A DNA stretch of 64,000 nucleotides from a virus, in IMG/VR virus record IMGVR_UViG_3300030329_003698, positions 13,183 to 77,182 of that record. The stretch is one strand, 5' to 3'. Position 1 is the stretch's first letter, and every line of letters starts with the position of its first letter. The translations under genes were made by a program, and so were the position numbers. Below are positions 32,675 to 49,957 of the stretch, one piece after another. The notes under the pieces were generated by a model. That model made no database searches. It was not told the DNA's origin and saw only the letters and a program-made list of their open reading frames with translations.

Positions 32675-32854
32675 ATGTCCAGACTTGATATGAGGTTAGG
32701 ATTTAGCTATAGGGCTACTGCCCATTTGTGTACTTGGGCTGCATTGATTTTTTCTGTTCTAGATGGCTTTCAGCCTTCCCACTTTACTGAAGTATGCCTA
32801 TGGGCGTCTATCACTTTTTTTGTGCTTGATAAACCAGCAAGGCTTATAAAATGA
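32675..32854 (+). CDS. 59-aa membrane protein (not in ORF track)
   Basis: Starts directly after the primase stop, ATGA overlap with the next gene, two hydrophobic segments. Confidence 0.5.
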   Translation: MSRLDMRLGFSYRATAHLCTWAALIFSVLDGFQPSHFTEVCLWASITFFVLDKPARLIK

Positions 32855-33573
32855 CTCAAAAAATTCTAGCTATCAGTGGACACAAAAGGGCGGGCAAGAC
32901 AACGTGCATTAACTTTCTACATGGTTATGAATTACAGAGAAATCAAGTAATTGAAAAGTTCTCTTTGGATGAGAGGGGCAAGCTGTTAGTCAACGCCGTT
33001 TTCATGGACGAAAAAGGTCAAGAGGTTCAGCAAATGGGTAGGCTGGACCTAGACAACAGGGAGCCAAGGTTTGTTAAGTATTGTTCTTCCAATGTCTGGC
33101 CCTATGTCAAGTCATATAATTTTGCAGACTCTCTCAAATCAATTGCTATCAACTTTTTTGGGTTAACCTATGAACAGTGTTATGGGTCTGAGAAAGACAA
33201 AAATAGCCCCTCTCCAATAAAAGATTATACAGCCAGAGAGTTTCTACAATACTTTGGAACAGATGTTTGTCGCTCTTTAAAAGAAGATGTATGGGTGGAT
33301 TTTTGTATTAACCAAATCCAGTCAGAACAAAGTTCTCTAGCTCTTGTTGGTGACTGCCGGTTTCCAGACGAGGTGGAAGCCATCCAGAACGCTGGTGGCA
33401 AGGTCATACGCCTCACAAGAACGCCACACGAAGATTCTCACGCAAGTGAGGTGGCCTTGGATACCTACGACGGGTTTGACGCTATGATTGACAACGAGGA
33501 CATGACCGTTGAAGAGCAATCAAAAGAGTTACTAGAAATAATGAAGGGTTGGGGGTGGCTGGAGTCGATATGA
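32851..33573 (+). CDS. Deoxynucleoside monophosphate kinase
   Basis: [35 protein letters not shown]. Confidence 0.9.
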
Positions 33574-34202
33574 AAGTTAAGCTTATTTCTATTACTCCTG
33601 ACGCAGAAAAAACCATCGGATACTGCGCCAGAGTTAGCAACCCTAAGAATCAAGACAACCCAGACGTAGCTGGGCTGTTGAAGTTTTGCATCAAACATGG
33701 CCACTGGTCTATATTTGAGATGGCTAACATGGTGGTTGAAATTAACACCACCAGAGGAATAGCCGCTCAGATTTTAAGACACAGAAGTTTTTCATTTCAA
33801 GAGTTCAGCCAGAGATACGCAAAAGCACAAGGGTTTGAATATGTCAAGCCAAGAAGACAAGACAACAAGAACAGGCAAAACTCTTTTGACGATTTGTCTG
33901 AAGACGATAGAACTTGGTTTGAATATACACATCAAAGAATTCAAGACGCAACAAGCGCATTTTACGAAGAAGCCCTAGAAAGAGGTATAGCCAAAGAAAC
34001 CGCTAGGTTCATGTTGCCGCTTAGTACCAAGACGCGCATGTATATGAATGGAACAGTTAGAAGCTGGATTCATTACATAAAACTGCGAACAGATCCATCA
34101 ACTCAGAAAGAGCATCAGGACATTGCAAATGAAATCAAGGGCATCTTTAGGGAAGAACTTCCTGTCATATCAGAAGCCTTGGAGTGGAATGAATGCTCGT
34201 AG
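33570..34202 (+). CDS. thyX: Flavin-dependent thymidylate synthase
   Basis: [33 protein letters not shown]. Confidence 0.95.
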
Positions 34203-35215
34203 CTTATATACGAAGCTCATCATATAATAGTTATGATTACTGTCAACAACAGTATTATATAAATTATGTTTTGGGGTTTCCGTCAACATCAGGCAAAAAA
34301 GCCCAACAGGGAACCATCGTCCACAAGGTGATGGAGTGTCTGTCCGCTTGCAAGAAAAGACTACAAAATCTCCCCGAGTCTAGTTTGATGAGCGTGACAG
34401 ATGACGCGCTTGGAAGAATCACATTCACCCACAGCAAACTATACTCAGATGAATTTGTTGATAAATTAGTGGATAAAAGTTTTGAACATTATACTTCTAA
34501 TTGCGTCCATGATTATACAGATAAAGAAGAGAGGGAGTGTCGCAAATGGACGTGGATGGGTCTACATTACAATGACGGCCAATTTGATCCTAGAAACAGA
34601 ACCATTGTAGACACAGAACCACACTTTGACATCGAGATAGATGAACCTTGGGCAGAGTATGACTACACCCTTGATGATGGGACAAGACTAAAAGGTAAAT
34701 TAGCCATCAAGGGGACTATAGATCTAGTTACCGAGGTGGAAAACGGGGTCATAGAAGTTGTAGATTGGAAGACTGGAAGAAGAATTAATTGGGCCACAGG
34801 TGAAGAAAAAGACTATAATAAACTAGAGACTGACCCACAACTGCTTCTCTACTATTATGCTATATCAAAGCTATACCCTGATTACGATCAGGCTATAATG
34901 ACCATTTTCTATATCAAAGACGGAGGACCATTCTCACTGTGCTATGACGATGGGGCTAAAGAGTTATTTCTTAATATGCTAAGAAAGAGATTCAACCAAA
35001 TAAAAAATAACAAATCCCCAATGTTATTGTCTCAGAACCAATCGCACTGGAAGTGTACTAAACTTTGCGATTACTATAAGAACAACTGGGAAGGTACGGA
35101 TACTAATATTTGTAAATATGTACAACAACATATTAAGCAAAACGGTATCGAAAGGACAACGCAAGATTGTACCAAACCAGACTTTAACATAGGGTATTAT
35201 GATGCTCCCGGTTAA
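34193..35215 (+). CDS. PD-(D/E)xK (AddB/Cas4-like) exonuclease
   Basis: GTIVH, GTIDL, VVDWKTG, QLLLY; one N-terminal and three C-terminal Cys. Confidence 0.85.
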
Positions 35216-36146
35216 ATATTTTAACAATAAAGAGATCGCGGAACTACTCTCAGTTCCAGAGTGTGTAGAGCTTGTAGAAGACCTTTTTCTAAATTTTGAC
35301 GACACCCAGATGCCGCCCAAAGTATACATGAATGTTCCCAACGGGGACTTCAGGGCTATGCCAGCGGTTGTGGGCAAAACGGCGGGAATTAAGTGGGCTG
35401 GACTCAACATCAAGGAAGAGGGCAAGATCAACATCTTTGCTATGGTGATGATCAATGATATTGAAACTGGAGACCTGCTAGCAGTTTTAGACGCAGAAAC
35501 ACTTACGGCTATTAGAACGGCGGCTGTGACAGGTGTTGCTACTAGACACATGTCTCCGTCTTATGCCAAAACAGCGGCATTCATAGGTTGTGGACATCAG
35601 ACGCTCAGACAAATTCGGGCGGTAGCGCATGTCAGAGATATAGAAACTATAAAGCTTTTTGACCTGAGTGAAGATAGAGCAAACTCGGTAAAAGAAGCCC
35701 TTCAGTATAAAGACAACTATTATCAGTCGCAGGGAATTGCGGTAGAGGTTTGTGAAAGCCTAGAACAATGTTTGTGGGATTCTGATATTGTTACGACTTT
35801 AACACCATCACGAACACCTTTTATAAAATATAAAGATTTAAAACCTATAGTTCATATTAATGCCGTTGGCGCTGACGCAGAGGGAAAAAGAGAATTGCAC
35901 TCCTGCGTCCTTGAAAATGTTGATATGGTCTCCTACGATGAGTGGGTCCAGTGTTCCCATTCTGGAGAGATACAATACGCCAAGAAAAGCAAAATCTCAC
36001 AGATATGGTCGCCATTATCAGAAATAGTGCAAGGAAGAGTTGAAAAAAGTGGCGCGTTGAGGACTCTGTTTGACGCCACAGGGCTTGCTATAGAAGACGT
36101 TGCCACAGCCCGATATATCTACGAAAAGTTTAACAGGAAAAAATAA
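35199..36146 (+). CDS. Ornithine cyclodeaminase/mu-crystallin family
   Basis: MPA, LTAIRTAA, GCGHQ, HINAVGAD..GKRE, FDATGLAIED. Confidence 0.92.
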   Translation: MMLPVKYFNNKEIAELLSVPECVELVEDLFLNFDDTQMPPKVYMNVPNGDFRAMPAVVGKTAGIKWAGLNIKEEGKINIFAMVMINDIETGDLLAVLDAETLTAIRTAAVTGVATRHMSPSYAKTAAFIGCGHQTLRQIRAVAHVRDIETIKLFDLSEDRANSVKEALQYKDNYYQSQGIAVEVCESLEQCLWDSDIVTTLTPSRTPFIKYKDLKPIVHINAVGADAEGKRELHSCVLENVDMVSYDEWVQCSHSGEIQYAKKSKISQIWSPLSEIVQGRVEKSGALRTLFDATGLAIEDVATARYIYEKFNRKK

Positions 36147-36184
36147 CCTAATCGGTTAGGATCTTGATCGTATAGGAAGCTAAA

Positions 36185-38101
36185 ATGCCTATCTGGACAC
36201 CGTTGCATCTACACACTCACTACAGTTTGCTCGACGGACTTTCAAAACCCGCTCAGGTTGCTGCGCGTTGCGAAGAACTTGGGTATGACTCATGCGCCTT
36301 AACAGACCATGGGACAATTTCAGGGTCCATCTCTTTTGTTAGAGCTATGAAAGAGAAAAACATAAAGCCTATTTTGGGTTGTGAGTTCTATCTATGTGAT
36401 CAAGACCCTTGTATTAAAGATAAAACAAACAGACGGCTTAGTCATCTAGTAGTGTTGGCTAAGAATTTTGAAGGATGGAAAAAATTAATAGAGGCCACGT
36501 CAGCTAGCAACGACGAAGAGGTCTTTTACCACAAGCCTCGTCTAGACCTGAACACCTTGGCAGAATACTGTGATGGCAACCTGATAAGTTTTTCGGGCCA
36601 TCTTGGTAGTCAACTTGCAGATATCATCTTTTCAGATGCCAGATCTGCCTATGGAGCTAAAACATACGAAGAAGCAAAATCGTTCGTGGACCCGGACTGG
36701 GTTAGCAAAACTACCCAGCTTGCTGAGAAATACCGCGAGATATTTGGCAAGGATAATTTCTTCCTTGAGATACAACTTATTGACCAAGATATGGCTCCGG
36801 CACAGAGGATTACAGCAGAGGGGCTAAGATATGTAAGTAAGTTAACAGGAATACCCTGTGTAGCTACAGCAGACTCTCATTACCCATCCTCAGAGGATGC
36901 AGCCGATCAGCGCGTTCTACTTTGTTCGTCTCTCAGAACTACGCTAAAAAAAGTCAGCGAGAAGATGAACAACGACGAGGAGATAGGTCTTGGCGGATTC
37001 TTTCGCTCTAACAAATACCACATTCCCACACAAGAAGAAATAGCTGCTATAAATTCCGAGGCTGAGATAGCCAACACCAGAAGAATCAGTGATATGTGCG
37101 AGTCTTATGAAGTCTTGGGAAAACCAATGCTTCCTAAGTTCGACTGTCCTGATGGAATGGGTGAATATGAATATCTAACGCAACTGTGTAGACATGGTTG
37201 GGTGGACAGGCTAGCGTCTCTTGGAAAGGTTGATGACCAGAACAAGAGCAACGAATATTCCGAAAGGATCAAGAAAGAGCTTTCTGTGATAAAAGAGGCA
37301 GACCTCTCTGGATACTTTCTTATCGTCCAAGATATCGTTAACCATGTTAGGCAAGAAAACTGGTTGCCGGGGCCGGGAAGAGGGTCGGCGGCAGGTTGTC
37401 TTATTTCCTATCTGATTGGTATAACAGAAGTAGACCCCATACAGTATAATTTAATTTTTGAGAGATTTTATAACGCTGGTCGGAACACAGAGGGTCATGT
37501 ATCCTTGCCTGATATTGATATCGACGTTCCCACAACAAAGCGGGAACAAGTAATAGAATATATGCGGGTAAAATACGGAAGAGAAAAAGTCGGCCAGATG
37601 GTAACTTTTGGGCGTATGCAGGGTAGAACTTCTATCAAAGAGGTTCTTAGGGTTCACGATGCTTGTAGCTACGACGAGATGAATGAGATAACAAGGAACA
37701 TCCCTTCCGAAGCTGAGATTTCTGACCAGCTACAAGAAATGGACGATCCCTCAATTATTAGATGGGCATTAATGAACACGCCAGACCAATTAAAAGATTG
37801 GTGTAGACTTGAGGATGACGGCACAATTACTGGCGAACTAGGCAAGCTTTTTGAACAAGCTATCAGACTAGAAGGAACATACAAATCTCAGGGCAAGCAT
37901 GCAGCAGGGGTTGTGATCGGCTCTGAGAAACTCAACGAGGTGTGTCCGATGGTCAGAGAAAAAAGAGGACACGAGAAGATTGCGGGATTGGAAATGCAAG
38001 ACTTAGAAGCAATGGGTCATGTAAAGTTTGATGTTCTGGGCATTAGTTTTTTGGACAAAATCATGGGAGTATCTAACCAACTAGACAGTGGAAAAATATA
38101 A
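36185..38101 (+). CDS. dnaE: DNA polymerase III alpha, N-terminal part (PHP, palm, thumb)
   Basis: HLHTHYSLLDG, TDHG, GRGSAAG, FERFYN, PDIDID, KHAAGVV, KFDVLG, then stop. Confidence 0.93.
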   Translation: MPIWTPLHLHTHYSLLDGLSKPAQVAARCEELGYDSCALTDHGTISGSISFVRAMKEKNIKPILGCEFYLCDQDPCIKDKTNRRLSHLVVLAKNFEGWKKLIEATSASNDEEVFYHKPRLDLNTLAEYCDGNLISFSGHLGSQLADIIFSDARSAYGAKTYEEAKSFVDPDWVSKTTQLAEKYREIFGKDNFFLEIQLIDQDMAPAQRITAEGLRYVSKLTGIPCVATADSHYPSSEDAADQRVLLCSSLRTTLKKVSEKMNNDEEIGLGGFFRSNKYHIPTQEEIAAINSEAEIANTRRISDMCESYEVLGKPMLPKFDCPDGMGEYEYLTQLCRHGWVDRLASLGKVDDQNKSNEYSERIKKELSVIKEADLSGYFLIVQDIVNHVRQENWLPGPGRGSAAGCLISYLIGITEVDPIQYNLIFERFYNAGRNTEGHVSLPDIDIDVPTTKREQVIEYMRVKYGREKVGQMVTFGRMQGRTSIKEVLRVHDACSYDEMNEITRNIPSEAEISDQLQEMDDPSIIRWALMNTPDQLKDWCRLEDDGTITGELGKLFEQAIRLEGTYKSQGKHAAGVVIGSEKLNEVCPMVREKRGHEKIAGLEMQDLEAMGHVKFDVLGISFLDKIMGVSNQLDSGKI

Positions 38102-38331
38102 TGGATGAAATCGCAGAGCTTTACAAGACAGTATTAATAGATGGCTCATCTGTGGAATGTCAAAAACTTTCCCTTTGCTGTCTTAACGACTACTATCCTA
38201 GATTTAAAACTTTAAAATACCAAGTAGATTGTGACGACTACAGACTAAAGTTTTCACAAATATATGATGGACCTCAACTTGGTCAAGCTATAAGTAAATA
38301 TCTAGAGATAAAAAGAAAGCTGTATAAATGA
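38101..38331 (+). CDS. Hypothetical protein
   Basis: TAATG-coupled to dnaE-N. Confidence 0.6.
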   Translation: MDEIAELYKTVLIDGSSVECQKLSLCCLNDYYPRFKTLKYQVDCDDYRLKFSQIYDGPQLGQAISKYLEIKRKLYK

Positions 38332-38852
38332 GGCTAGACCACATAGCTTACAGAGTTGCCGACAGAAAAGAGGCTGCCAGCTTTCTAAACTCAATACTTG
38401 AGTATAAGGTTGGAACTGAGTTTGATATCGTTTTTGACGATGGGTCAAAGGCTGAATGCATTGCAATGATCCCTAGAGAAAAAATGGACAATGTCCCACC
38501 AATAGAAGCCGGGGGATTTCGACATCTTGCTCCAGAAATATTCATATCGGACGGGGACGAGAATTCAATTGTTGGTCAGTGGGTTGCCGAAAGAGGTGGT
38601 GTTGGAGGGGTTCACCATTTTGCATACCAAGTGTTTGGAATAGATCGGGTAGTAAAAGATTGGCGAGAAAAAGGCGTAGAATTTCTCACAGAAGACGTAA
38701 TCGACTGTCCTGAAGACGACCTAAAACAAATCTTCACAAAACCCCTTGCACAATTGGGCGGGGTGATCATAGAACTCATAGAGCGGGGCCAAAAGGGTTT
38801 CTGCCAAAACTCAGTAAAAAATCTAATGGAATCTACTAAGGAAGCAAAATGA
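38328..38852 (+). CDS. VOC-fold protein resembling the HPPD C-terminal catalytic domain
   Basis: LDHIAY, GVHHFAY, GVEFL, LKQIFTKP, IELIER, GF. Confidence 0.8.
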   Translation: MRLDHIAYRVADRKEAASFLNSILEYKVGTEFDIVFDDGSKAECIAMIPREKMDNVPPIEAGGFRHLAPEIFISDGDENSIVGQWVAERGGVGGVHHFAYQVFGIDRVVKDWREKGVEFLTEDVIDCPEDDLKQIFTKPLAQLGGVIIELIERGQKGFCQNSVKNLMESTKEAK

Positions 38853-40339
38853 CGACTTATCAAATCGCCAAAGGCATGCATTACATCAACGGTGAGTTTG
38901 TAGAAGGAAACGAAGAAAGTTTATTCGACAGTATTAACCCAGCAACAGGGAGAATCATTGGGTCTTTTCCCCAAGCTACATCAGCAGAGATTTCTTCAGC
39001 GTACAACGCTGCCAAGTCCGCTTTTCCAGAGTGGAGAAACTTAAGTAGATTTCAACGCGGCGATTATTTTCTCAGGGTGGCAGAACTTCTAGAAAACAAC
39101 AAGGAAGATATCGCCGCTATTATTAGCCAAGAAACAGGAAAAGTTTTCAACGAGTCTATTGCAGAGGTCAACGAGGCTTTGCACATGGCTCAATACGCTT
39201 TTAGCACAGGAAGAATGCCTTATGGAGAAGCAATCGCGTCTGAGCTACCTGAAAAAGACGCTTTTATGCTCAGGAAGCCCAAGGGTGTTGTTGCTATTGT
39301 TGCTCCTTTTAACTTTCCTTTCGCTATTGGAGGCTTCTGGTGTGCTGCACCGGCTCTTGTCGAAGGTAATACTGTCGTTCTAAAGCCCAGCGAAGACGTT
39401 GCGTGGGTTGGGCAAATTATTGCGGAGCTATACAAAGAGGCTGGTTTTCCTCCGGGTGTGTTTAACATGGTTCACGGAGATGGAGAGGTTGGCGATAAAT
39501 TGATCCATGAAGATGTAGACCACATTTGCTTTACCGGAAGCGCCGATGTAGGAATGCATGTTCGTAAAGTGTGTGCTGAAAGCTGGCACAAAACTTGTTC
39601 TTGTGAAATGGGAAGTAAATCAGCAGTAATTATCCATGAAGACGCTAATTATGACCTCGCAATGGCAGCATGCCTTGCCAGCGCTTTCAAACTATCTGGT
39701 CAACGTTGCGTGTCTGCTGGCCGGATGATTGTCCACCGATCTCTATACGACAGATTCGCAAAAGATTTTGCTTCTCTTGCTGCTAACGCCGTAACAGGAG
39801 ATCCGTTTGACGACAACACATTTTATGGAAGTCTAATTAATGAACCCCAACTCCAAAGGGTTGAAGGGTTTAACAAAATGGTAGAAGAAGATCCAGAAGC
39901 AGAAGTGCTGTTGATGGGAGAACGCTTGGAGGGCGACGGTTTATTCTTGACGCCCACTGTCTACAAGACTGAGTGGAGAGATGTCCCTTATCTCAAGCAG
40001 GAGGTATTTGGACCTCATGTCTCTATTATTCCTTACGACACAGTAGATGATGCTATTCGCATTTACAATGATACGGACTATGGACTTTCACTAGGAGTAG
40101 TAACGGAGAACTTTAAAATTGCCAGACGTATCCGTAATGAATGTGATTTTGGTCTTGGTTATTGGAACGGCGGGAGCATTGCTGCTGAGAGCCATCTGGG
40201 ATTCGGAGGAGTGAAGAAGTCTGGAAACGGACAACCTAGCGCAGCCCGAACCTTCAGATCTGTTACCCACGAAGTAGCTTGGACTGTAAACCATGGTGAT
40301 TCATTAAACTTCCCACAAGGCATGAACACCGGTAGCTGA
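38849..40339 (+). CDS. NAD(P)-dependent aldehyde dehydrogenase (semialdehyde dehydrogenase candidate)
   Basis: PFNFP, KPSE, FTGS, EMGSK, GQRC, EVFGP, FGGVKKSG. Confidence 0.93.
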   Translation: MTTYQIAKGMHYINGEFVEGNEESLFDSINPATGRIIGSFPQATSAEISSAYNAAKSAFPEWRNLSRFQRGDYFLRVAELLENNKEDIAAIISQETGKVFNESIAEVNEALHMAQYAFSTGRMPYGEAIASELPEKDAFMLRKPKGVVAIVAPFNFPFAIGGFWCAAPALVEGNTVVLKPSEDVAWVGQIIAELYKEAGFPPGVFNMVHGDGEVGDKLIHEDVDHICFTGSADVGMHVRKVCAESWHKTCSCEMGSKSAVIIHEDANYDLAMAACLASAFKLSGQRCVSAGRMIVHRSLYDRFAKDFASLAANAVTGDPFDDNTFYGSLINEPQLQRVEGFNKMVEEDPEAEVLLMGERLEGDGLFLTPTVYKTEWRDVPYLKQEVFGPHVSIIPYDTVDDAIRIYNDTDYGLSLGVVTENFKIARRIRNECDFGLGYWNGGSIAAESHLGFGGVKKSGNGQPSAARTFRSVTHEVAWTVNHGDSLNFPQGMNTGS

Positions 40340-41139
40340 TGACTGAAATACTAGTATGTAAGCCAACATATTTTGGTATAGAATATGAAATAAACCCTTG
40401 GATGAGCATGAATAAAGATGCTGATCCAGAGTTTGCGATGTTTCAATGGGATCGTATGTGCGACCGTCTCAAAAAGGCGGGTGCTAGGATTAGGTACATC
40501 GAACCGCAGCGTGGTTTACCAGACATGGTATTCACAGCTAATGCTGGCTTAGTTTACAAAAACACTGTAATTCTATCAAACTTTAGACACCAAGAACGAC
40601 GAGAAGAAAAAAAACTCTTTAAAGAATGGTTCTTGCGAAATGGGTACAGGGTTGTCGAACTTCCAGAAAGCGTATGTTTTGAGGGAGAAGGAGACGCTCT
40701 TTTTTTTAAGGGTGTGCTGTTTATGGGTTCTGGCTTCAGAACTGACCCAGACGCACATTCGATAATAGGCCGAGCGCTTGATATAGATGTTGTTAGCTGT
40801 GAATTAGTTGACCCAAGGTTCTATCACCTAGACACCTGTTTTCTTCCTTTAAAAGATAGAATTGTTTATTACAGAGATGCGTTTTCTAAGTTCAGTCAAC
40901 ATATAATGATACAAAAGCTGATAGAGATTGGTTACAATAGTGGGACTTTGGATGTCTTAAACGTACACGAGGACCAAGCTAAAGAGTTTATTTGTAACAG
41001 CATTGAGATAGACGAAACTGTTGTAACTCCTACAGATATGTTTTCTCTATCATTTTCTGGTAAAAAGACGCTGGTTAGCAATATGTCAGAATTTATGAAA
41101 TCTGGAGGAGCCGTAAAATGTCTAACTCTCAGACTATAG
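40339..41139 (+). CDS. Amidinotransferase superfamily, ArgZ/Rv2323c-like arginine dihydrolase or DDAH
   Basis: YEINPWM, PDMVFTAN, FEGEGD, FYHLDTC, GGAVKC. Confidence 0.88.
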   Translation: MTEILVCKPTYFGIEYEINPWMSMNKDADPEFAMFQWDRMCDRLKKAGARIRYIEPQRGLPDMVFTANAGLVYKNTVILSNFRHQERREEKKLFKEWFLRNGYRVVELPESVCFEGEGDALFFKGVLFMGSGFRTDPDAHSIIGRALDIDVVSCELVDPRFYHLDTCFLPLKDRIVYYRDAFSKFSQHIMIQKLIEIGYNSGTLDVLNVHEDQAKEFICNSIEIDETVVTPTDMFSLSFSGKKTLVSNMSEFMKSGGAVKCLTLRL

Positions 41140-42326
41140 ACACTTTACAAAAATACATCCTTGTTGACGGATTTCATATTGTAGTAGACACAAGGAGGAG
41201 TGTCGGTAGCTGGATTGTCGATGTAGACATGGGCAATAGATATTTGGACTGCTACTCTCAATTTGCCAGCCAAGCACTGGGCTGGAAAGACCCAGCTATG
41301 ATATCCGCACAAAGGGAGATGGGTCGGGTTGGCATGACAAAGATTGCCAACAGTGATATGTACTCAGAAGAATACGCAAGGTTTGTTGAAAGTTTTGCGT
41401 CCATCACTCCTGATTTTGAACATTACTTTTTTATTGACGGTGGAGCTTTAGCAGTAGAGAACGCGCTAAAAGCCGCGTTTGATTGGAAGGCTCAAAAACT
41501 GGGGTACAGCCACACTGTTGATATCAACAATCTAGACATCTTCCATCTCAAGAATGCATTTCACGGGCGAACAGGATACACCCTTTCTCTCACCAATACA
41601 ACCCCCGAAAAGACCGCGCTTTTTCCCAAGTTTAGATGGACTACCGTAGAGCCTGATTGGGAAGATATTGAACGCCGTATGCATAAAGAGGTTGCTGCCA
41701 TCATCGTGGAACCGATCCAAGGTGAAGGTGGAGACAACCATTTTCCTACAGAGTTTTTCCAGAACCTTAGACGCATAGCAAACGAACACGATTGCCTTCT
41801 TATATTTGATGAAGTGCAAACAGGTATGGGGCTGACCGGAAAGATGTGGGCTTATGAACATTTCGATGTTGTCCCAGACATGATGTGCTTCGGCAAGAAA
41901 ACTCAAGTGTGTGGAGTCTGTTCCACAAACAGGATAGACGAGGTAGAGAGCAATGTCTTCAGTACTTCCGGTCGTGTTAATTCTACTTGGGGTGGCAATA
42001 TTGTGGATATGGTTAGATCTAGATACATAATAGATGCTATTCAACAACGAGATTTAGTAGAAAACGCATCGAAAGTTGGCCAAGATCTTCTTAGGCAGTT
42101 GAGAAAACTTCCAGTAATAGACAATGTTCGTGGTAGAGGTCTTATGATTGCGTTTGACTTGCCGGATGAGCAAACGCGAGACGGGATGATGTCACTTCTA
42201 CAAGAGAACATGCTTGCTCTTAAGTCTGGCAATCGTTCAATTAGACTAAGACCACCGCTGACATTTTCTTTTGAGGATGCGGAGTCGGCAAAGAACTTCA
42301 TCTATGAGGCCATTACAAAACTATGA
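41118..42326 (+). CDS. lat: L-lysine 6-aminotransferase (class III PLP)
   Basis: ILVDG..VVD..RS.GS N-terminus, GALAVENALKAAFDWK, AFHGRTGY, EPIQGEGG, DEVQTG, FGKK, STWGG. Confidence 0.9.
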   Translation: MSNSQTIDTLQKYILVDGFHIVVDTRRSVGSWIVDVDMGNRYLDCYSQFASQALGWKDPAMISAQREMGRVGMTKIANSDMYSEEYARFVESFASITPDFEHYFFIDGGALAVENALKAAFDWKAQKLGYSHTVDINNLDIFHLKNAFHGRTGYTLSLTNTTPEKTALFPKFRWTTVEPDWEDIERRMHKEVAAIIVEPIQGEGGDNHFPTEFFQNLRRIANEHDCLLIFDEVQTGMGLTGKMWAYEHFDVVPDMMCFGKKTQVCGVCSTNRIDEVESNVFSTSGRVNSTWGGNIVDMVRSRYIIDAIQQRDLVENASKVGQDLLRQLRKLPVIDNVRGRGLMIAFDLPDEQTRDGMMSLLQENMLALKSGNRSIRLRPPLTFSFEDAESAKNFIYEAITKL

Positions 42327-43162
42327 AAATAAGAAACGTAGGAATAGTAGGGCAGGGCTTTGTTGGGACGGCTTTAAGAGAAGTGTTCTCGTGTTACAAC
42401 AAAGTGTATACTTATGATAAAGCTCATAAAGATCTCTCCACGCATAAAGGAATATCCGATCTATCATACTCTTGTGATGTGATTTTTGTTTGCGTTCCAA
42501 CGCCAATGAAGCCAGACGGATCATGCGACACATCAATTGTTGAGACGGTTTGTTTAGATGCTTGCAAAACCGGAAGACAAAATATCATTGTCATCAAGTC
42601 TACGGTTCCTCCGGGGACCACCAAAAAAATCAACGAAAAATGCATTGATTCCCAAGTAGTCTTTAACCCTGAGTTTCTTCTGGAAAGAAACGCCACTGAA
42701 GACTTTCGTAATACCAGTCGTGTTATTCTAGGTGGGCCAAGGCCAGCTACGACTAGACTAAGATCATTCTACGCAAACGTTTTCCCCAAAGCCTCCATTG
42801 TAAAGACAGACTCAACTATAGCGGAGTACGTGAAATATCTCACCAATTGCTTCTTATCTGTGAAGGTTTCCCTAGCCAACGAAATCTCGTCGATGTGCAA
42901 GGAGGACGGGGTTGACTACGACAAGGTGATCGAATATGCTATACACGACAACAGATTGGGGGATTCTCACTGGTCGGTTCCCGGCCCGGACGGCAATCTG
43001 GGATTTGGAGGGAGTTGTTTTCCAAAAGATCTCAACGCTTTAATACAACACGCAATAAATGCTGGCGTACCTCCAAACACTATGATCGGCGCTTGGAATA
43101 CCAATCTAACAGTAAGACCACAAAAAGACTGGGAACAGCTTAAAGGAAGGGCTGTACAATGA
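42323..43162 (+). CDS. UDP-glucose/GDP-mannose dehydrogenase family, lacking the C-terminal domain
   Basis: GQGFVG, CVPTP, KSTVPPGT, NPEFL, FGGSCFPKD. Confidence 0.85.
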   Translation: MKIRNVGIVGQGFVGTALREVFSCYNKVYTYDKAHKDLSTHKGISDLSYSCDVIFVCVPTPMKPDGSCDTSIVETVCLDACKTGRQNIIVIKSTVPPGTTKKINEKCIDSQVVFNPEFLLERNATEDFRNTSRVILGGPRPATTRLRSFYANVFPKASIVKTDSTIAEYVKYLTNCFLSVKVSLANEISSMCKEDGVDYDKVIEYAIHDNRLGDSHWSVPGPDGNLGFGGSCFPKDLNALIQHAINAGVPPNTMIGAWNTNLTVRPQKDWEQLKGRAVQ

Positions 43163-44229
43163 GAGCAGCTATAATTGGCGTGGGAAACATGGGTCAAGCT
43201 GTAGCTTGGTCTATGGATGAACTTGGCTTTGATTTAACGCTTGTTGACTCTTCGGAAAAAGCTCTCGAAGAGTGTAACCAGCTTTTACAAAAACCCGCTA
43301 ACCTACAACATAGTTATACTCTAGGGCTTGGCAATCCAGACGTAGTTATATCTTGTCTTCCGTACAGCGAAAACACTTTACTAGCACAGTACTGCATCAA
43401 AAACAGACTAAGGTATTGTGATCTTGGCGGAAACGTAAAAATCAGCGAAGACATCAACGAATTCGCCAGTAGATCCGCTAAAGCCCCAATTATGACTGAC
43501 CTCGGCCTTGCTCCGGGTTTTGTTAACATTGTTCTTGAAGAGTTTTTCAGACAGGCGTCGGAAGCGGAAGACCAACTGAAGACTCCAGAAAATGTCAATG
43601 TTATGGTTGGTGGTATCCCTCAAAGCCGAGTACCATCAGATTATTTTAATTATAACTGCACTTGGTCTGTGGACGGCTTGATCAACGAATATACGGAAGA
43701 CTGCATCCTTGTTCAGAACGGGGTAAAGATTGTATCTCCACCACTCCTTGGTTTAGTAAAACTAATGACAAAAAATCTTGGAGAACTAGAAGCCTTTTAC
43801 ACAAGCGGTGGGTCTGCCCATAGCGTAAATAGAATGATAGAGCTTGGGGTTTCTAATTTTTCATACAGGACATTACGCTGGCCGGGACACCACTGGACCA
43901 TAAATCTACTGATCAATAAATGCGATCTAAATAAAGATCAGCTTAAGCACATATTTACAAAAAACTGTAGCACACCAACAAATGATGACTGTGTTGCTAT
44001 TTATATGAGTGTGGATGACAAGATTCAAGAGATGGTCATATATCCACAAAGAGGGTTTACAGCCATGCAAGTTGGCACTGGATACTCAGCCGCAGTAGTA
44101 GCCTCTCTACTTGCGAGGGGAGACTTCGACGACAAGAAGACTGTAAAATATGAAGACATAAATTTTGAAACTTTTACTGAAGTTCTAGACAAACTTGTAA
44201 GCACAGAGAACGATAATGAATTACAATGA
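43159..44229 (+). CDS. Saccharopine dehydrogenase / lysine 6-dehydrogenase family
   Basis: GVGNMG, DLGG, GLAPG, WSVDGLINEY, EAFYTSGG, RTLRWPGH. Confidence 0.88.
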   Translation: MRAAIIGVGNMGQAVAWSMDELGFDLTLVDSSEKALEECNQLLQKPANLQHSYTLGLGNPDVVISCLPYSENTLLAQYCIKNRLRYCDLGGNVKISEDINEFASRSAKAPIMTDLGLAPGFVNIVLEEFFRQASEAEDQLKTPENVNVMVGGIPQSRVPSDYFNYNCTWSVDGLINEYTEDCILVQNGVKIVSPPLLGLVKLMTKNLGELEAFYTSGGSAHSVNRMIELGVSNFSYRTLRWPGHHWTINLLINKCDLNKDQLKHIFTKNCSTPTNDDCVAIYMSVDDKIQEMVIYPQRGFTAMQVGTGYSAAVVASLLARGDFDDKKTVKYEDINFETFTEVLDKLVSTENDNELQ

Positions 44230-44896
44230 TATTTGCGTTTTCGATTTTGAGACCGGGAGTAGAAACCCACACACAACACAGCCAATACAAGTGGCTGCTG
44301 TAATGATTCATGGCAGAAAACTGACCATACAACCAGACGGATATTTCGAATCTCTTATAAAACCAATGGGAGATGAAAAAGCTGTGGCCGCTGGTGTGGA
44401 CCCGCTAGAAGACGAGGCTCTTCAAATAAACGGCAAGACCAGAGCAGAGCTTTCAAAAGCTCCACACGCCAAAACTGTGTGGGAAAGATTTGCAAACTTT
44501 GTAAACAAGTTTAACTACAAAGGGGGTTCTTGGACCGCCCCCATAGCCGCTGGTCACAATATAGACAATTTCGATATGATTATTGCCGAAAGACTATGCA
44601 AATCATACGGACCAATAGATAAGAAGAGGAATGTTCAGGCCGTCTTTCATCCAATCCATAGGCTAGACTTGATGAGAGAGGTTTGGATGTGGACAGAAAA
44701 TAACAAAGACATCAGAAGTATAAGCATGGACTCTATTAGAGACTGGCTTGGTATGTCTAAAGAAAATGCCCACGACGCCCTACAAGATGTAAAAGACACC
44801 GCCGCTGTATTGATTAAGTTTATGAAACTTTATCGTCATTACGCACCCAAGGTTAAGTTTGAAAAGGCTTTTGCCAATGACGGATTACCGGTTTGA
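44216..44896 (+). CDS. DEDDh 3'-5' exonuclease (DnaQ/epsilon-like)
   Basis: FDFETG, GHNIDNFD, HDALQD. Confidence 0.9.
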   Translation: MNYNDICVFDFETGSRNPHTTQPIQVAAVMIHGRKLTIQPDGYFESLIKPMGDEKAVAAGVDPLEDEALQINGKTRAELSKAPHAKTVWERFANFVNKFNYKGGSWTAPIAAGHNIDNFDMIIAERLCKSYGPIDKKRNVQAVFHPIHRLDLMREVWMWTENNKDIRSISMDSIRDWLGMSKENAHDALQDVKDTAAVLIKFMKLYRHYAPKVKFEKAFANDGLPV

Positions 44897-46550
44897 TTGC
44901 GGTTGTAGCTTCTCTGTTAAAGATCCGAAGCACCCTATTACTCTATCCCAAACGGGTTTGCCATCTGTAGACTTTAAAATAAGAGAGTCTCCATATGATT
45001 GTAGAATGACTTGGGACTTAATCAAGGAAGGGAAAACAAAAGGTGTATTTCAACTTGAAAGTAATTTAGGAAAATCTTGGGCAAAAAGGATTCGCCCAAA
45101 CAACATCGAAGAATTAGCCGCTCTAACGGCCTTGATCAGACCCGGATGCCTCAAGGCAATCATTGACGGCAAGTCGATGACTCAGAGGTACGTCGACAGA
45201 AAGAATGGCACAGAGGAGTTAACGTACTTACACGACTCCCTAGAGCCAATATTGGAGTCCACGCAAGGGGTTCTGGTATACCAAGAGCAGAGCATGCAGA
45301 TAGCGCAAGTTATCGCGGGTTTTGATCTTCAACAAGCCGACTCTTTAAGAAAGGCTATTGGTAAGAAAAACGCCAGCTTGATGTCAGAGGTAAAGGATTC
45401 TTTTTTAGACGGGGCCGACAGCAAAGGACTCGTTACTAGAGAAATTGCGGAAGAAATTTTTGGGTGGATTGAGAAATCCAACAGGTACGCTTTCAATAAA
45501 AGCCACGCCGTTTCTTATGCCATTTGTGGATACTGGTCAGCTTACGCTAAAGCTCATTTCCCAATTAATTTCTACTGTAACTACCTCTATTTTGCTGACG
45601 GAAAACAAGATACACAATCCGAGATCAGAGAGGTTGTGAGTGACGCTAGAATTCACGGCGTTGAGATAGCCGCACCCTCCATAGTCAATATGAACCACAA
45701 ATTTAATATAAACAATAGGATTATACACTTTGGGTTTAATGACATTAAGTCTGTCGGGGCAAAGCAGGTTGAAAAGCTGGTCTCTACAATTTCTGAGATC
45801 GAAGAATTTCTAGAAAAGCCTGTTGTGGATTGGTCTTGGTATCAATTCCTGATAAATGCCTCTCACAAGATTAATAGTAAAGTTTGCAACGCCCTAGCGT
45901 CTGTTGGGGCGTTTTCTTGTTTTGGTATCTCCCGAAACAGAATGATCTACGAGATTGATGTTTGGTCCAAGCTAACGGACAAAGAAAGAGCTTGGATAAT
46001 AGAACGGCAAAAGAGTTGGGACGAGATAATACCAGCTTTGACAGAACTGTCTCCTACCAAAAAAATGGGTGGCGGAACGTTTAATGGTACAAGAAGCGAG
46101 ATTGTCAGAAGTCTTGTTTTGATGCTGGAAGACCCGCCATACTCTCTTGACGATTCTCCAAGCTGGTCTTCTAGGGTTGAAAAAGAATATCTCGGAATAC
46201 CCATTAGTTATTCTGAAGTTGATTCCTGTGACACCAGTGCGGCCACCGCCACTTGCAAAGAGTTTTTCGATGGAATCAAAGGTGATGTCACCTTGGCTGT
46301 CCAGATTATAGACCTGAAAGAATATAAATTAAAAAAGGGTCAAAATAAGGGCAGGAATATGGCTTTTCTTACGGTTGAAGATGGTACAGGATCTATTGAT
46401 AATGTGACAGTCTTTTGTGATGATTGGGAAAAACACAACACAACTTTATACGAAGGAAACACCGTTTTGTTGTACGGAGGTCGCTCAGACAGATCGCAAG
46501 CCAACAGAGGAAACGACGGTTTTGTTGTCAAAAAAGTTGTGCAAATCTGA
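44877..46550 (+). CDS. dnaE: DNA polymerase III alpha, C-terminal part (fingers, HhH, OB)
   Basis: GVFQLES, ALIRPG, GVLVYQEQ, LRKAIGKK, YAFNKSHA, IKSVG, MAFLTVED. Confidence 0.93.
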   Translation: MTDYRFDCGCSFSVKDPKHPITLSQTGLPSVDFKIRESPYDCRMTWDLIKEGKTKGVFQLESNLGKSWAKRIRPNNIEELAALTALIRPGCLKAIIDGKSMTQRYVDRKNGTEELTYLHDSLEPILESTQGVLVYQEQSMQIAQVIAGFDLQQADSLRKAIGKKNASLMSEVKDSFLDGADSKGLVTREIAEEIFGWIEKSNRYAFNKSHAVSYAICGYWSAYAKAHFPINFYCNYLYFADGKQDTQSEIREVVSDARIHGVEIAAPSIVNMNHKFNINNRIIHFGFNDIKSVGAKQVEKLVSTISEIEEFLEKPVVDWSWYQFLINASHKINSKVCNALASVGAFSCFGISRNRMIYEIDVWSKLTDKERAWIIERQKSWDEIIPALTELSPTKKMGGGTFNGTRSEIVRSLVLMLEDPPYSLDDSPSWSSRVEKEYLGIPISYSEVDSCDTSAATATCKEFFDGIKGDVTLAVQIIDLKEYKLKKGQNKGRNMAFLTVEDGTGSIDNVTVFCDDWEKHNTTLYEGNTVLLYGGRSDRSQANRGNDGFVVKKVVQI

Positions 46551-46577
46551 ACAACAGATGGTACTTTAGATAGGCGA

Positions 46578-47102
46578 ATGGAAGAGAGAATCATAAAATT
46601 TCTGAAAGACCACCACTACATGGTCAAGGTCTTTCACGCCGAGGAAAACGGTTGTAGCGCATATTTTCCATCTAGATACGTAATTGATCCAGATGTGAAC
46701 GAAAATATTTGTGTATACACTTTACAAAACGACGACACAAGACCGGGAATACATTACTATTCAACAGAACTAAACTATACAAGTTTTGTAGAGTGTCCTA
46801 TATATGCGGCCCGAATAGTAATATTCCAAGACATTTTAATGAAGACTGAGAGACTCGGATTATCAACCAAGTTCATTAGCTACTTTGACGAAAACGACAA
46901 CGAGCTAGAGGACGCAACGTTTGTTGATCTAATTGCACCCCCAGAAGACCCAAAAGAAGTAAAGTTAGAGGAAAAGTTGGCAGAAATATTCTATGAAGCA
47001 TATCCAACTTTTTCAAAAGAATTTCAAGAACTAGCAGAACAGTATGGTGTAGCTAAAGGCTACGAACTAATTAACCTAGCTTTCGTTATGGAAGGACTCT
47101 AA
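46578..47102 (+). CDS. Hypothetical acidic protein
   Basis: 174-aa ORF. Confidence 0.65.
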   Translation: MEERIIKFLKDHHYMVKVFHAEENGCSAYFPSRYVIDPDVNENICVYTLQNDDTRPGIHYYSTELNYTSFVECPIYAARIVIFQDILMKTERLGLSTKFISYFDENDNELEDATFVDLIAPPEDPKEVKLEEKLAEIFYEAYPTFSKEFQELAEQYGVAKGYELINLAFVMEGL

Positions 47103-47106
47103 TCTG

Positions 47107-47505
47107 ATGTCGATGAACAATTGCAATTTTATTGGTCGTCTTGTTGCCGATCCCGAACTAAACGACGTTAATGACACAAGCGTCGTGAGGTTTACTCTGG
47201 CTATCAACGAATACCGAAAGTCCAGAGACGGCGAAAAGAACAAGAACGTCAGTTATCTAGATTTTGAAGCTTGGGACACAGGAGCGACCACAATTGGCAA
47301 GCATTGTCGCAAGGGCGATGAAATTGCTGTATTGGCTTCTGCTCGTCAGGACAAGTGGACTGACAAGGAGGGCAACCGTCGCTCAAAGGTCAAGTTTAGA
47401 GTGAACAAGTTCAAGTTGTTTAATTATAACAATAACAATAACAACGACAGGCAAAAGGAAGAGACTCAAAAAGTAGCTGTTGCGGAGAGCGATGCCCCGT
47501 TCTAA
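47107..47505 (+). CDS. ssb: Single-stranded DNA-binding protein
   Basis: IGRLVADPEL, FTLAIN, AW, KGD, C-terminal DAPF. Confidence 0.93.
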   Translation: MSMNNCNFIGRLVADPELNDVNDTSVVRFTLAINEYRKSRDGEKNKNVSYLDFEAWDTGATTIGKHCRKGDEIAVLASARQDKWTDKEGNRRSKVKFRVNKFKLFNYNNNNNNDRQKEETQKVAVAESDAPF

Positions 47506-48007
47506 GAATTCAAATAAAGACTCTAAAGAGACAAAAGAGCTTGAGGAACAGCTAGTCCATACTCATTATGGATTGGTTGTTTCTCAGGCTCTTCGTTTTT
47601 CTAACAACAGGAGTTATATAGAAGATTACATACAGGTGGGATTGATAGGTCTGTTAAAGGCTATCAGAAATTACGATTCAGAAAAAAGTAAATTTTCAAC
47701 CTTCGCTACCGTTTGCATAAGAAACGAAATATTTAGATATACAAGAAAAAATAAGCCAAAGACAATCCCTGTAGACGCAAAAATCAAAAATGTTATAAAC
47801 AGGACCGACGACTGGTACGTTCCTGTAGAGGGAATATGGGAGTACATCCCAGACAGCTTGACTGAAAAAGAAAGGCTGGTGTTGCAAATGAAGTTTGAAA
47901 ACTACACACATAAAGAAATAGCAGATACAATATGTTGCTCAAAAGGAAGAGTAAAAAACATCCTTAAAAAAATCATATCCTTATTGCAAAGAGCCAATGG
48001 CGAATAG
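47492..48007 (+). CDS. Sigma-70 family RNA polymerase sigma factor
   Basis: EDYIQVGLIGLLKAIRNYD..KSKFSTFA; YTHKEIA HTH. Confidence 0.9.
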   Translation: MPRSKNSNKDSKETKELEEQLVHTHYGLVVSQALRFSNNRSYIEDYIQVGLIGLLKAIRNYDSEKSKFSTFATVCIRNEIFRYTRKNKPKTIPVDAKIKNVINRTDDWYVPVEGIWEYIPDSLTEKERLVLQMKFENYTHKEIADTICCSKGRVKNILKKIISLLQRANGE

Positions 48008-49676
48008 AAAAAAAAGAATCCTCTTGTGCAACGAGGCTTCATTCCTAAATACTGGTTATGCTACTTATGGCCGAGAGGTCATGAAAAGATGGCATGCGTC
48101 CGGTAAATACGATGTAGCAGAGCTATCTGTCTATGCTCATCCGGCAGACGAGAGACTTAATGAAATACCGTGGCCTACATATCCAAACTCTCCGCTACCA
48201 AACAATTCAGAAGCATTCAACGAGTACCACTCCATCCCAACCAACCAATTTGGAGAATGGAGATTTGAGGATGTCTGCTTAGACTTTAAACCTGATATCG
48301 TGGTAGATATCAGAGACTTCTGGATGCTGGAGTTTGAAGAGAGGTCGCCTTTTAGAGATCTGTTTTATTGGTTCATCATGCCCACCGTTGACGCAGAAGG
48401 GCAAAACGAGCAATGGTTGGCAACCTACGCAAACGCTGACGTAGTCTTCACATATTCAGACTTTGCTGGCGAGACACTAAAACAAGAAAGCGGAGGGTGT
48501 ATCAACTATGTTGGCACTGCTCCACCTTCAGCGGACTCAGTATATCGACCGGCAGAAGATAGAGATGAACACAAAAAGCGCCTTGGTCTGAAACCAGAAA
48601 CAAAGATCATCGGCACGGTGATGCGCAACCAGCGTAGAAAACTGTTCCCAGACCTATTCGAAACCTTTAGAAAGTTCCTAGATCTCACCGACAACCCAAA
48701 CATCTTTCTATATTGCCATACAAGCTACCCTGATGTTGGGTGGGATCTCCCAAAGCTGATAAAGAAGTTCGGCTTGGCCAGCAGGTTGTTATTCACCTAT
48801 GTATGCGAAGAATGTAACTGGTGTTTTCCTTCGTTTTTTGTTGACTCTATCACAAGTTGTTCGAGGTGCGGTGGCCATAAGTGTGGTTTGTCGAACGTTA
48901 ACAGAGGGGTTTCTACAGAATACCTTGCTGACATCATGAACACGTTTGACCTGTATATACAGTACGCCAACAGCGAAGGGTTTGGTTTGCCGCAAGTGGA
49001 GGCGGCGGCCTGCGGAGTACCAGTCATGTCTGTTGACTACTCTGCTATGAGTAGCGCTGTTAGAAAAATAAATGGCACACCTATCCAGCTAAAGACAAAA
49101 TATCTAGAACTGGAAACGGGATGTTATAGGGCCATACCAGACAATGATTACACCGTTGAGAAACTGGTTGAATTCTTCAAACTAAGCAAAGAAGAGCAGC
49201 ACGCCTTGGGGGACAACTCTAGAAAGGGTTTTGAGGAAAATTATTCCTATGACAAAACTGCTGAAATTTGGGAGAGAGAGTTTGACAACGCCCCCATAAG
49301 AGAGGGGATCTGGGATTCCCCACCCAAGCTACATAATCCGTCTACGGAGATTCCTAAAAATTTAACAAACAAAGAGATTGCCAAGTGGTTGATAGTAAAT
49401 GTCCTTGGCGATCCTTCTAAGCTGGATAGCTACATGGAGGCTAGGCTAACCAGAGACCTGAACTACGGAGTCTTTATAGAAGGTACTGGTAGCCTGTATT
49501 TTAACGAAGATTGCTATGCTTACAACAAACCCTCGTTTCAGAAATTTGACGTTCAAGAGGCTTACAACCAGCTAGCCGGAATGAGAGGAAAAATTAACTA
49601 CTGGGAGCAAAGAAGGCTTGGTCAAATTCAAGCTCCCAGACCGAAATGGATGCCCAACAATGTTCCCAGTATTTAA
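47997..49676 (+). CDS. GT-B (GT4-type) glycosyltransferase with Zn-ribbon insertion
   Basis: TGYATY, RNQRRK, EGFGLPQVEAAACG; CEEC...CSRC insert. Confidence 0.85.
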   Translation: MANRKKRILLCNEASFLNTGYATYGREVMKRWHASGKYDVAELSVYAHPADERLNEIPWPTYPNSPLPNNSEAFNEYHSIPTNQFGEWRFEDVCLDFKPDIVVDIRDFWMLEFEERSPFRDLFYWFIMPTVDAEGQNEQWLATYANADVVFTYSDFAGETLKQESGGCINYVGTAPPSADSVYRPAEDRDEHKKRLGLKPETKIIGTVMRNQRRKLFPDLFETFRKFLDLTDNPNIFLYCHTSYPDVGWDLPKLIKKFGLASRLLFTYVCEECNWCFPSFFVDSITSCSRCGGHKCGLSNVNRGVSTEYLADIMNTFDLYIQYANSEGFGLPQVEAAACGVPVMSVDYSAMSSAVRKINGTPIQLKTKYLELETGCYRAIPDNDYTVEKLVEFFKLSKEEQHALGDNSRKGFEENYSYDKTAEIWEREFDNAPIREGIWDSPPKLHNPSTEIPKNLTNKEIAKWLIVNVLGDPSKLDSYMEARLTRDLNYGVFIEGTGSLYFNEDCYAYNKPSFQKFDVQEAYNQLAGMRGKINYWEQRRLGQIQAPRPKWMPNNVPSI

Positions 49677-49944
49677 AAACAGAGCCGGATTTGAAATAAC
49701 GTTCAATAATGAGGTTACAGTCTTTGTAGAATGGGATTCTTCCAGTGGTAACCTTGCCTCTGCGAGAGCTTCTCACTCTAAAGCTGGAGATTTACACGTC
49801 ACAAGTTTTGAGAAAAAGTACACGGAAGGCAACTACACTATTAAAGATTTGTCGCCTGAAGAGCTTCTTAAATTTTTGAACAAGTCTTGCAGCATGCGTT
49901 TTACAGAAGAGGGCGAACAGTGCGTAGCCTTTTTTGACTTTTAA
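49660..49944 (+). CDS. Hypothetical protein
   Basis: Coupled ORF. Confidence 0.55.
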   Translation: MFPVFKNRAGFEITFNNEVTVFVEWDSSSGNLASARASHSKAGDLHVTSFEKKYTEGNYTIKDLSPEELLKFLNKSCSMRFTEEGEQCVAFFDF

Positions 49945-49957
49945 ATAGATAGAAGAA

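Follow-up and report, generated by a model that had tools for sequence, protein, structure and literature searches.

We report here that a phage DNA polymerase III α subunit (Pol III α, DnaE) is encoded as two separate proteins, hereafter DnaE-N and DnaE-C, with the gene for a DnaQ-like exonuclease lying between the two halves. The split was found in a 64,000-nucleotide stretch of DNA (hereafter ‘the window’, to which all coordinates refer unless another locus is named) comprising positions 13,183 to 77,182 of the 77-kb IMG/VR viral record IMGVR_UViG_3300030329_003698, which originates from an uncultured marine phage and has an estimated completeness of ~51%. Comparison with related viral loci shows that the intein-free split of DnaE is conserved throughout a large clade of aquatic phages. 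In our working model, to which we assign a probability of roughly 0.8, the replicative polymerase is a non-covalent assembly of separately translated DnaE-N, DnaE-C and exonuclease, the assembly being what we infer. In support of the model, we show how the genes are built and conserved, that they are under purifying selection, that intein and intron signals are lacking at the break, and that complete relatives have no other polymerase.

DnaE is divided at the palm/fingers boundary

Between them, the two proteins contain all of the domains that define Pol III α, although not in a single polypeptide: the PHP domain, the palm with three catalytic aspartates and the thumb are found in DnaE-N, and the fingers, the HhH and the OB domains are all found in DnaE-C. 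In DnaE-N, Pfam detects PHP (residues 7–197) and DNA_pol3_alpha (residues 329–619, with the full model covered). The catalytic aspartates are located in the motifs PDIDID (D443 and D445) and KFDVLG (D616), and the protein ends 19 amino acids (aa) past the latter; the aspartate triad and nine positions of the PHP metal site are invariant in our alignment A1. The DnaE-N stop codon (38099–38101) is followed by 6.8 kb with eight open reading frames (ORFs), after which comes DnaE-C with the motif GVFQLES near its start and with Pfam matches to DNA_pol3_finger (residues 38–189), HHH_6 and the OB fold. On the basis of the aligned relatives, we place the start of DnaE-C at the ATG at 44877, 20 nt within the exonuclease gene, and not at the TTG at 44859. 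Pfam, motif positions and ORF coordinates thus agree with the initial annotation of this DNA, which described a 638-aa N-part with PHP, palm, thumb and three aspartates that stops ~19 aa after KFDVLG, and a C-part with fingers, HhH and OB domains that starts ~6.8 kb downstream, just before GVFQLES. Its count of seven genes between the halves needs correcting to eight: a 76-aa ORF, six metabolic genes and the exonuclease.

To map the break, both parts were aligned to the solved E. coli α structure. DnaE-N aligns to α residues 5–563 (DnaE-N residue 624 corresponds to α 563) and DnaE-C to α residues 580–899 (residue 33 of the TTG-initiated form of the C-part corresponds to α 580). The alignment places the break in dnaE between the equivalents of α residues 563 and 580, which, going by the reported domain limits (Lamers 2006), is the palm/fingers boundary.

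DnaE-C starts with a 42-aa head that precedes the fingers. The predicted model of the protein (predicted local distance difference test score, pLDDT, 88.5) has a β-hairpin at residues 3–14, and the cysteines C8, C10 and C42 are invariant in 19 head-bearing relatives. The head is missing from several sublineages as well as from relatives with a contiguous DnaE (see below). The head had been proposed to act as a docking or metal-binding element; a general docking role is ruled out because several sublineages do without the head, which is a lineage-specific addition.

The break lacks signals of protein or RNA splicing

No intein or Hint domain was detected by Pfam in either half, nor in the isolated 40-aa tail of DnaE-N and 68-aa head of DnaE-C. 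Known split inteins consist of an N-intein of ~88–123 aa that starts with Cys or Ser and a C-intein of ~36 aa that ends in His-Asn followed by a nucleophile; here, DnaE-N has a tail of just 19 aa and DnaE-C a head of 42 aa. The tail after the last conserved helix and the head before the fingers sum to ~40–55 residues, and to ~20 in some relatives. Tails and heads at the break vary in length and sequence among relatives, and no conserved nucleophile or HN junction is present in the aligned heads and tails. The same Pfam scan does detect inteins at other sites in the DnaE-C proteins of two relatives, L063 and L046, which serve as positive controls. Furthermore, Rfam detects no intron or other RNA family in 35000–47500. 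The absence of intein blocks at either end and of intron RNA between the halves, both asserted in the initial annotation, is therefore borne out. Unlike in ‘fractured’ genes (see below), the conserved nested gene does not code for a homing endonuclease but for a DEDDh exonuclease; an HNH-like ORF between the halves is only sporadic, in L016 (motif read by eye).

Several DnaE-C genes of the clade are interrupted elsewhere. A full in-frame intein (Pfam Intein_splicing, 1.5e-11), itself carrying an HNH-like insert, occupies an RPGC site in L063 (12751–15018); in L016, ~70 aa are inserted in frame at this position, and no intein signal is detected there. In L046 (15964–18847), DnaE-C has been ‘fractured’ at FNK|SH, with an N-intein (Hint match) at the end of its first piece, then an ORF for a 306-aa DUF559/Vsr-like endonuclease, and then the second piece, which opens with a C-intein-like segment of ~38 aa.

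The read layout contains joints (37347>45351, 45374>47254 and three short ones), all with sides of 22–28 nt on one contig of the marine sequencing run X3 and a likeness of 90%. We treat them as fragments of relatives and not as a spliced form; none of the joints is at the break.

Five relatives were searched in their entirety for other polymerases; four of them have a completeness of at least 94%, and one of these four is a 243.8-kb genome that has terminal repeats. No PolA or PolB domain was found in the five, and each has one DnaE palm, in a frame of ~630–650 aa. PolA, PolB and the beta clamp were likewise not found in the window’s own, ~51% complete record.

The split is shared by a large clade of aquatic phages

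An IMG/VR scan yielded 80 related viral loci with 44–82% identity, ~70 of them with readable junctions. In every one of the latter, DnaE-N stops 12–25 aa after KFDxLG (with one outlier of 33 aa), and in every contig that reaches far enough the gene order is DnaE-N, usually a microprotein, the DnaQ-like exonuclease and DnaE-C. In most loci, the DnaE-C gene starts at the exonuclease stop codon or only a few bases from it, the overlap being 4–20 nt; an overlap of DnaE-N with the exonuclease gene is seen in few, and the relative reading frames vary between loci. The two halves always co-occur, near helicase, primase, SSB (single-stranded DNA-binding protein) and exonuclease genes, and the finger motifs do not vary within the clade. 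Beyond IMG/VR, more than 100 clusters of proteins of 581–693 aa (mostly 630–650 aa) that consist of PHP plus palm only were retrieved from a set of 5.8 billion proteins; they share 56–92% identity and stem from ENA, JGI, Tara, NCBI and Logan data.

Strong purifying selection acts on the exonuclease as well as on both halves, the ratios of non-synonymous to synonymous substitution rates (dN/dS) being 0.015–0.034 for moderately diverged pairs; dS is high and the values are rough, but far below 1. Error-free contigs from an independent marine sample (run X3) span both junctions of the window (37217–38359 and 44411–45080). With ~70 contigs sharing the break and the X3 contigs crossing both junctions, the assembly error that the initial annotation had allowed for does not account for the split.

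Across the loci, the exonuclease gene, usually with a microprotein gene, is the constant insert between the halves, the six metabolic genes of the window being a local addition. In one group of loci, L071–L081 (e.g. L071:10001–11572), DnaE-N lacks ~120 PHP residues, with query residues ~110–230 unmatched; here the DnaQ-like exonuclease may be the only proofreader.

A proofreading exonuclease gene is nested between the halves

The exonuclease has the motifs Exo I (DxE), Exo II (D) and Exo III (Hx4D), and its residues D10, E12, D120, H186 and D191 are invariant in alignment A4 (20 sequences). It is encoded downstream of DnaE-N in all loci reaching it, and between the halves wherever the contig holds the C-part. 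A longer protein containing the exonuclease was not found among the 397–2000-aa proteins of the 5.8-billion-protein set, which is weak evidence.

The C-terminal tail of the exonuclease (44840–44896) is KFEKAFA-like and conserved, and its codons overlap the DnaE-C start. This overlap explains a peptide, ‘LKRLLxM’, that is apparently conserved in the other frame upstream of the DnaE-C start. By analogy with E. coli ε, the tail is a candidate polymerase-docking peptide.

Contiguous sisters point to the origin of the split

Contiguous DnaE proteins of 1124–1152 aa, 43–54% identical and encoded on phage-sized contigs, are a small minority in IMG/VR. They were retrieved by the alignment-based IMG/VR scan; using a single sister protein as the query returned nothing. 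One such contig, L085, is syntenic with the window: it carries the nuclease, two small ORFs, an exonuclease (44% identical), a contiguous 1139-aa DnaE, SSB and a glycosyltransferase, with the exonuclease gene located immediately upstream of the contiguous dnaE. When aligned to a contiguous sister (49% identical), DnaE-N matches up to residue 628 and DnaE-C from residue 637, leaving an 8-residue linker. The simplest history would be that a rearrangement put the exonuclease gene into the linker of dnaE or, equivalently, moved the 5′ half upstream of the exonuclease gene.

A small protein is usually encoded after DnaE-N

In most loci, DnaE-N is followed by a 150–240-nt spacer with a small ORF; some loci have no small ORF. 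The 76-aa microprotein of the window belongs to a family that we call A (70–80 aa, with a conserved YQV and a C-terminal helix), which is under purifying selection in relatives (dN/dS 0.03–0.14). Family A is matched by 201 representative clusters, every one small and free-standing. Other loci have family B (~60 aa, with an SCC motif) or a third type with a CxxC...CxxC pattern; no homology between families A and B is detectable by hhalign (probability 0.3%).

The 76-aa microprotein is predicted to adopt an α-β4-α fold (pLDDT 91.8), for which Foldseek returned no significant structural relative in the PDB. The best VIA-align match is YkuJ (2ffg_B, Z 6.8), and AP2 and integrase-arm-type DNA-binding domains score Z 3.7–5.5. 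As these Z values are within the range of common arrangements, we assign no function to the microprotein from fold matches. A complex prediction with DnaE-N, the exonuclease and the microprotein as partner scored 0.01, which is no evidence either way.

Working model and alternative explanations

In the model, the PHP domain, the thumb and the palm, which holds the three catalytic aspartates, would come from DnaE-N, and the fingers, HhH/clamp-binding region and OB fold from DnaE-C. The active site would be composite: DnaE-N would provide the metal ligands, and the DnaE-C fingers would contact the nucleotide and the template. A DnaQ-type proofreading exonuclease is encoded between the halves, and neither protein nor RNA splicing would take place. 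The layout would have arisen in a phage lineage whose sister still has a contiguous dnaE with the exonuclease gene just ahead of it, and the junctions have since taken up other genes. Since the genes abut or overlap, they suggest one translationally coupled operon and roughly equal amounts of the proteins. Of the heterodimeric C-family replicase cut at the palm/fingers linker that the initial annotation envisaged, the intein-free two-protein DnaE stands on the comparative evidence, and the coming together of the halves is proposed here.

We also entertain, as a speculative and probably incorrect elaboration, a four-subunit core consisting of α-N, microprotein, ε-like exonuclease and α-C, which the gene order would mirror. 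The exonuclease and, in most lineages, the fast-evolving microprotein would then dock at or near the palm/fingers break, and the split would place the proofreader beside the active site without covalent linkage, as a PolC-like arrangement in trans, the break serving as a tolerated landing pad for cargo.

Some points weigh against the proposed non-covalent assembly. Binding of the halves to each other and polymerase activity are predictions; co-transcription is proposed from gene overlap, a scan for promoters and terminators having given counts equal to those in shuffled sequence; and because the window’s record is only ~51% complete, a second polymerase in this particular phage is excluded solely by analogy with its complete relatives.

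As to the alternatives, it is very improbable that a tiny or atypical split intein, an intron or ribosomal bypassing rejoins the halves into a single-chain DnaE. The idea draws on the split-intein DnaE known in cyanobacteria and in the metagenomic ‘fractured genes’ (PMC2677866), as well as on the inteins that relatives within the clade do carry at other DnaE-C sites. However, the ~40–55 residues (~20 in some relatives) of tail plus head fall short of known intein halves (~88–105 plus ~36; PMC2677866), the Hint/intein, nucleophile/HN-junction and Rfam searches described above came back empty, the DNA between the halves codes for conserved, selected proteins in varying frames, and no contig joins the halves at the break. 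A fusion of DnaE-N, exonuclease and DnaE-C in translation, whereby programmed frameshifts or read-through would generate a PolC-like chain with an internal exonuclease, is very improbable as well. The varying frames argue against it, as do the 150–240-nt spacer with an unrelated microprotein gene present in most loci, the 6.1 kb of other genes that intervene in the window and, as weak evidence, the lack of a fused exonuclease homologue among the 397–2000-aa proteins searched. PolC is a C-family polymerase with an exonuclease inside its chain, and this precedent, together with the 4–20-nt exonuclease/DnaE-C overlap in most loci and the DnaE-N/exonuclease overlap in few, speaks for such a fusion; yet the overlaps look like those of ordinary translational coupling.

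We also consider it unlikely that the two pieces have ceased to be a polymerase, serving for example as a PHP nuclease and a clamp- or DNA-binding factor, with host Pol III copying the phage genome. While the polymerase activity of the halves is a prediction, and the loss of ~120 PHP residues in L071–L081 indicates that parts of the protein are dispensable, the catalytic aspartate triad and the finger motifs are invariant, dN/dS is ~0.02 on both halves, the halves are always found together beside replication genes, and the complete relatives searched have no other polymerase. Finally, as the window stems from an incomplete viral contig assembled from a metagenome, an assembly or sequencing artefact, or a decaying pseudogene, might be suspected. 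These readings are excluded because the same break is shared by ~70 contigs from many samples and by more than 100 clusters from several data sources, error-free contigs from another sample span the junctions, and purifying selection is strong.

Comparison with known split polymerases

The only well-known natural split of Pol III α is, to our knowledge, one that is repaired by an intein, the textbook form being single-chain. Compared to single-chain DnaE (Taq 2HPI/3E0D, E. coli 2HNH/5FKU and M. tuberculosis 5LEW), the phage proteins have the same domain order, the aspartate triad and an intact PHP metal site, but the chain is cut after the first finger helix, the exonuclease gene lies between the pieces and a 42-aa head with three cysteines has been added. 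In PolC, a DnaQ-like exonuclease domain is located within PHP; here PHP is uninterrupted, and the exonuclease is separate and encoded after the palm/thumb. The cut site of cyanobacterial DnaE differs from the phage break. According to the studies cited in PMC2677866 (Wu 1998, Caspi 2003), cyanobacterial DnaE is encoded by separate loci, an intein half is attached to each DnaE half at its end or its beginning, and the product is religated by the trans-splicing intein. The phage DnaE is also the product of two genes, but these contain no intein parts and form one operon-like block.

Closer in layout are the ‘fractured genes’ of marine metagenomes, in which a split intein interrupts DnaE and other proteins and the two halves flank a free-standing gene for a homing endonuclease (Dassa et al. 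2009, PMC2677866). These likewise have adjacent halves with a nested gene in environmental phage-like DNA, and the DnaE-C of L046 has exactly such an arrangement elsewhere; at the palm/fingers break, however, there is no intein, and the nested gene codes for a DnaQ-type exonuclease instead of a homing endonuclease. For group 2.2 jumbo phages, a minimal Pol III α nucleotidyltransferase core that lacks PHP, HhH and OB and is composed of two stand-alone proteins without splicing has been predicted (Iyer et al. 2021, PMC7824862); the cut is inside the catalytic module, the genes are distant, and a family B polymerase accompanies them (PMC7824862). In the clade described here, by contrast, neighbouring genes encode the complete set of domains, and neither the record nor five relatives contain a PolB.

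Splits are also known in family B, where gp43A/43B of T4-related Aeromonas phages together constitute a split polymerase. Cryo-electron microscopy has shown that the split family B polymerase of PhiKZ, DNAP-N/DNAP-C, forms a stable 1:1 complex without splicing (Basu et al. 2026, PMC13648687). Both examples differ from the phage DnaE in polymerase family and fold and in their cut sites, and neither has an exonuclease gene nested between the halves. The PhiKZ polymerase is the best functional analogue of the proposed DnaE assembly. Full-text literature searches found no description of an unspliced split with a nested exonuclease.

A large and abundant clade of aquatic phages apparently runs on an unspliced two-piece Pol III α as its sole polymerase. 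The palm/fingers boundary would be a natural permissive split site that could serve protein engineering and the study of how the fingers close on the palm, and the phage proteins may offer a compact α/ε system for structural work. The locus also exemplifies how rearrangement and cargo insertion can reshape the operon of an essential enzyme. For annotation, the implication is that ‘DnaE fragments’ of ~640 and ~560 aa in viromes are not pseudogenes.

Cargo genes at the junctions

Extra ORFs are present at one of the two junctions in ~20 of the ~70 loci. The extras differ between relatives; both junctions are thus tolerated insertion points, and the suggestion in the initial annotation that the split point is an insertion site for cargo genes, with relatives sharing the break and differing in their inserts, holds. 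The insertion in the window is the largest seen at the break. Its six metabolic genes and the ornithine cyclodeaminase/alanine dehydrogenase family (OCD) gene upstream of DnaE-N are found in the window and in L002 only, out of the 80 loci (Table 1). The set points to catabolism of arginine, ornithine and lysine, with no NCBIfam equivalog cut-off reached. If the genes do form an operon with those of the polymerase, the six amino-acid catabolism genes would be expressed jointly with the replication genes. The closest cellular homologues of the aminotransferase are 46–64% identical; as they are scattered over many phyla, we make no call on host or donor.

Different inserts are seen in other loci. 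A gene of the uracil-DNA glycosylase (UDG) superfamily (Pfam UDG, 1e-32) and a ~105-aa ORF lie between DnaE-N and the exonuclease gene in L009 (6431–6985) and L010 (10391–10939). In L046 (12722–15785), the exonuclease gene and DnaE-C are separated by genes for DUF1501, for DUF1559 (which has an N-terminal methylation motif) and for ThyX; DUF1501 and DUF1559 are strongly expanded in Planctomycetota, and the L046 copies may give a clue to the host.

A marine metatranscriptome (run X7) contains short error-free contigs within 40277–47360 of the window, located on the arginine dihydrolase-like, aminotransferase, saccharopine dehydrogenase-like, exonuclease and SSB genes and on the ORF at 46578; as carry-over of DNA is possible, we do not claim expression.

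Table 1. Features of the split dnaE locus and adjoining genes (window coordinates).
Feature	Coordinates	Strand	Evidence and remarks
Nuclease gene	34193..35215	+	PHROG 69/1218 ‘exonuclease’; upstream of DnaE-N in 80/80 loci, immediate neighbour in most
OCD family gene, cargo upstream of DnaE-N	35199..36146	+	NCBIfam TIGR02371 (1e-57) and OCD family, below curated cut-offs
DnaE-N: PHP, palm, thumb, first finger helix	36185..38101	+	638 aa; Pfam domains, E. coli α alignment, catalytic D443, D445, D616
76-aa microprotein, family A	38101..38331	+	Start overlaps DnaE-N stop (TAATG)
Glyoxalase/VOC-fold protein	38328..38852	+	Pfam Glyoxalase_4, Glyoxalase; weak NCBIfam 4HPPD, methylmalonyl-CoA epimerase
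Aldehyde dehydrogenase	38849..40339	+	Pfam Aldedh (2e-130); no NCBIfam equivalog at cut-off
Arginine dihydrolase/DDAH-like amidinohydrolase	40339..41139	+	NCBIfam NF052232 (1e-75), full length, below cut-off; Pfam DDAH_eukar
Class-III aminotransferase, L-lysine 6-transaminase family	41118..42326	+	TIGR03251, 484 bits vs cut-off of 521
Short NDP-sugar dehydrogenase-like protein without C-terminal domain	42323..43162	+	Pfam UDPG_MGDP_dh_N (partial) and central domain; TIGR03026, model positions 73–293 of 413
Saccharopine dehydrogenase-like NAD(P) oxidoreductase	43159..44229	+	Pfam Sacchrp_dh_C, Sacchrp_dh_NADP
DnaQ-like DEDDh 3′–5′ exonuclease	44216..44896	+	226 aa; Pfam RNase_T; PHROG 192 ‘DNA polymerase exonuclease subunit’
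DnaE-C: 42-aa head with CGC...C, then fingers, HhH, OB	44877..46550	+	Pfam, E. coli α alignment, aligned relatives
SSB	47107..47505	+	PHROG 44; downstream of DnaE-C in most loci

The surrounding replication module

Nearly all genes of the window are on the plus strand. The replication module begins with a DnaB-like helicase, a primase, a deoxynucleoside monophosphate (dNMP) kinase, a thymidylate-synthase homologue, the nuclease, the OCD family gene and DnaE-N, and continues through the eight ORFs to DnaE-C, a 174-aa ORF, SSB, a sigma factor and glycosyltransferases. In most relatives, SSB adjoins DnaE-C directly; here, the 174-aa ORF (46578–47102) intervenes. This ORF is present in the closest relatives only (L002 and L066) and has no matches in Pfam, PHROG or NCBIfam. 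The thymidylate-synthase homologue (33549–34202) and the dNMP kinase (32851–33573) are encoded alongside at least four glycosyltransferase genes (5722–6801 and 47997–52076), a combination reminiscent of phage DNA hypermodification, in which hydroxymethyl-pyrimidine formation is coupled with glycosylation.

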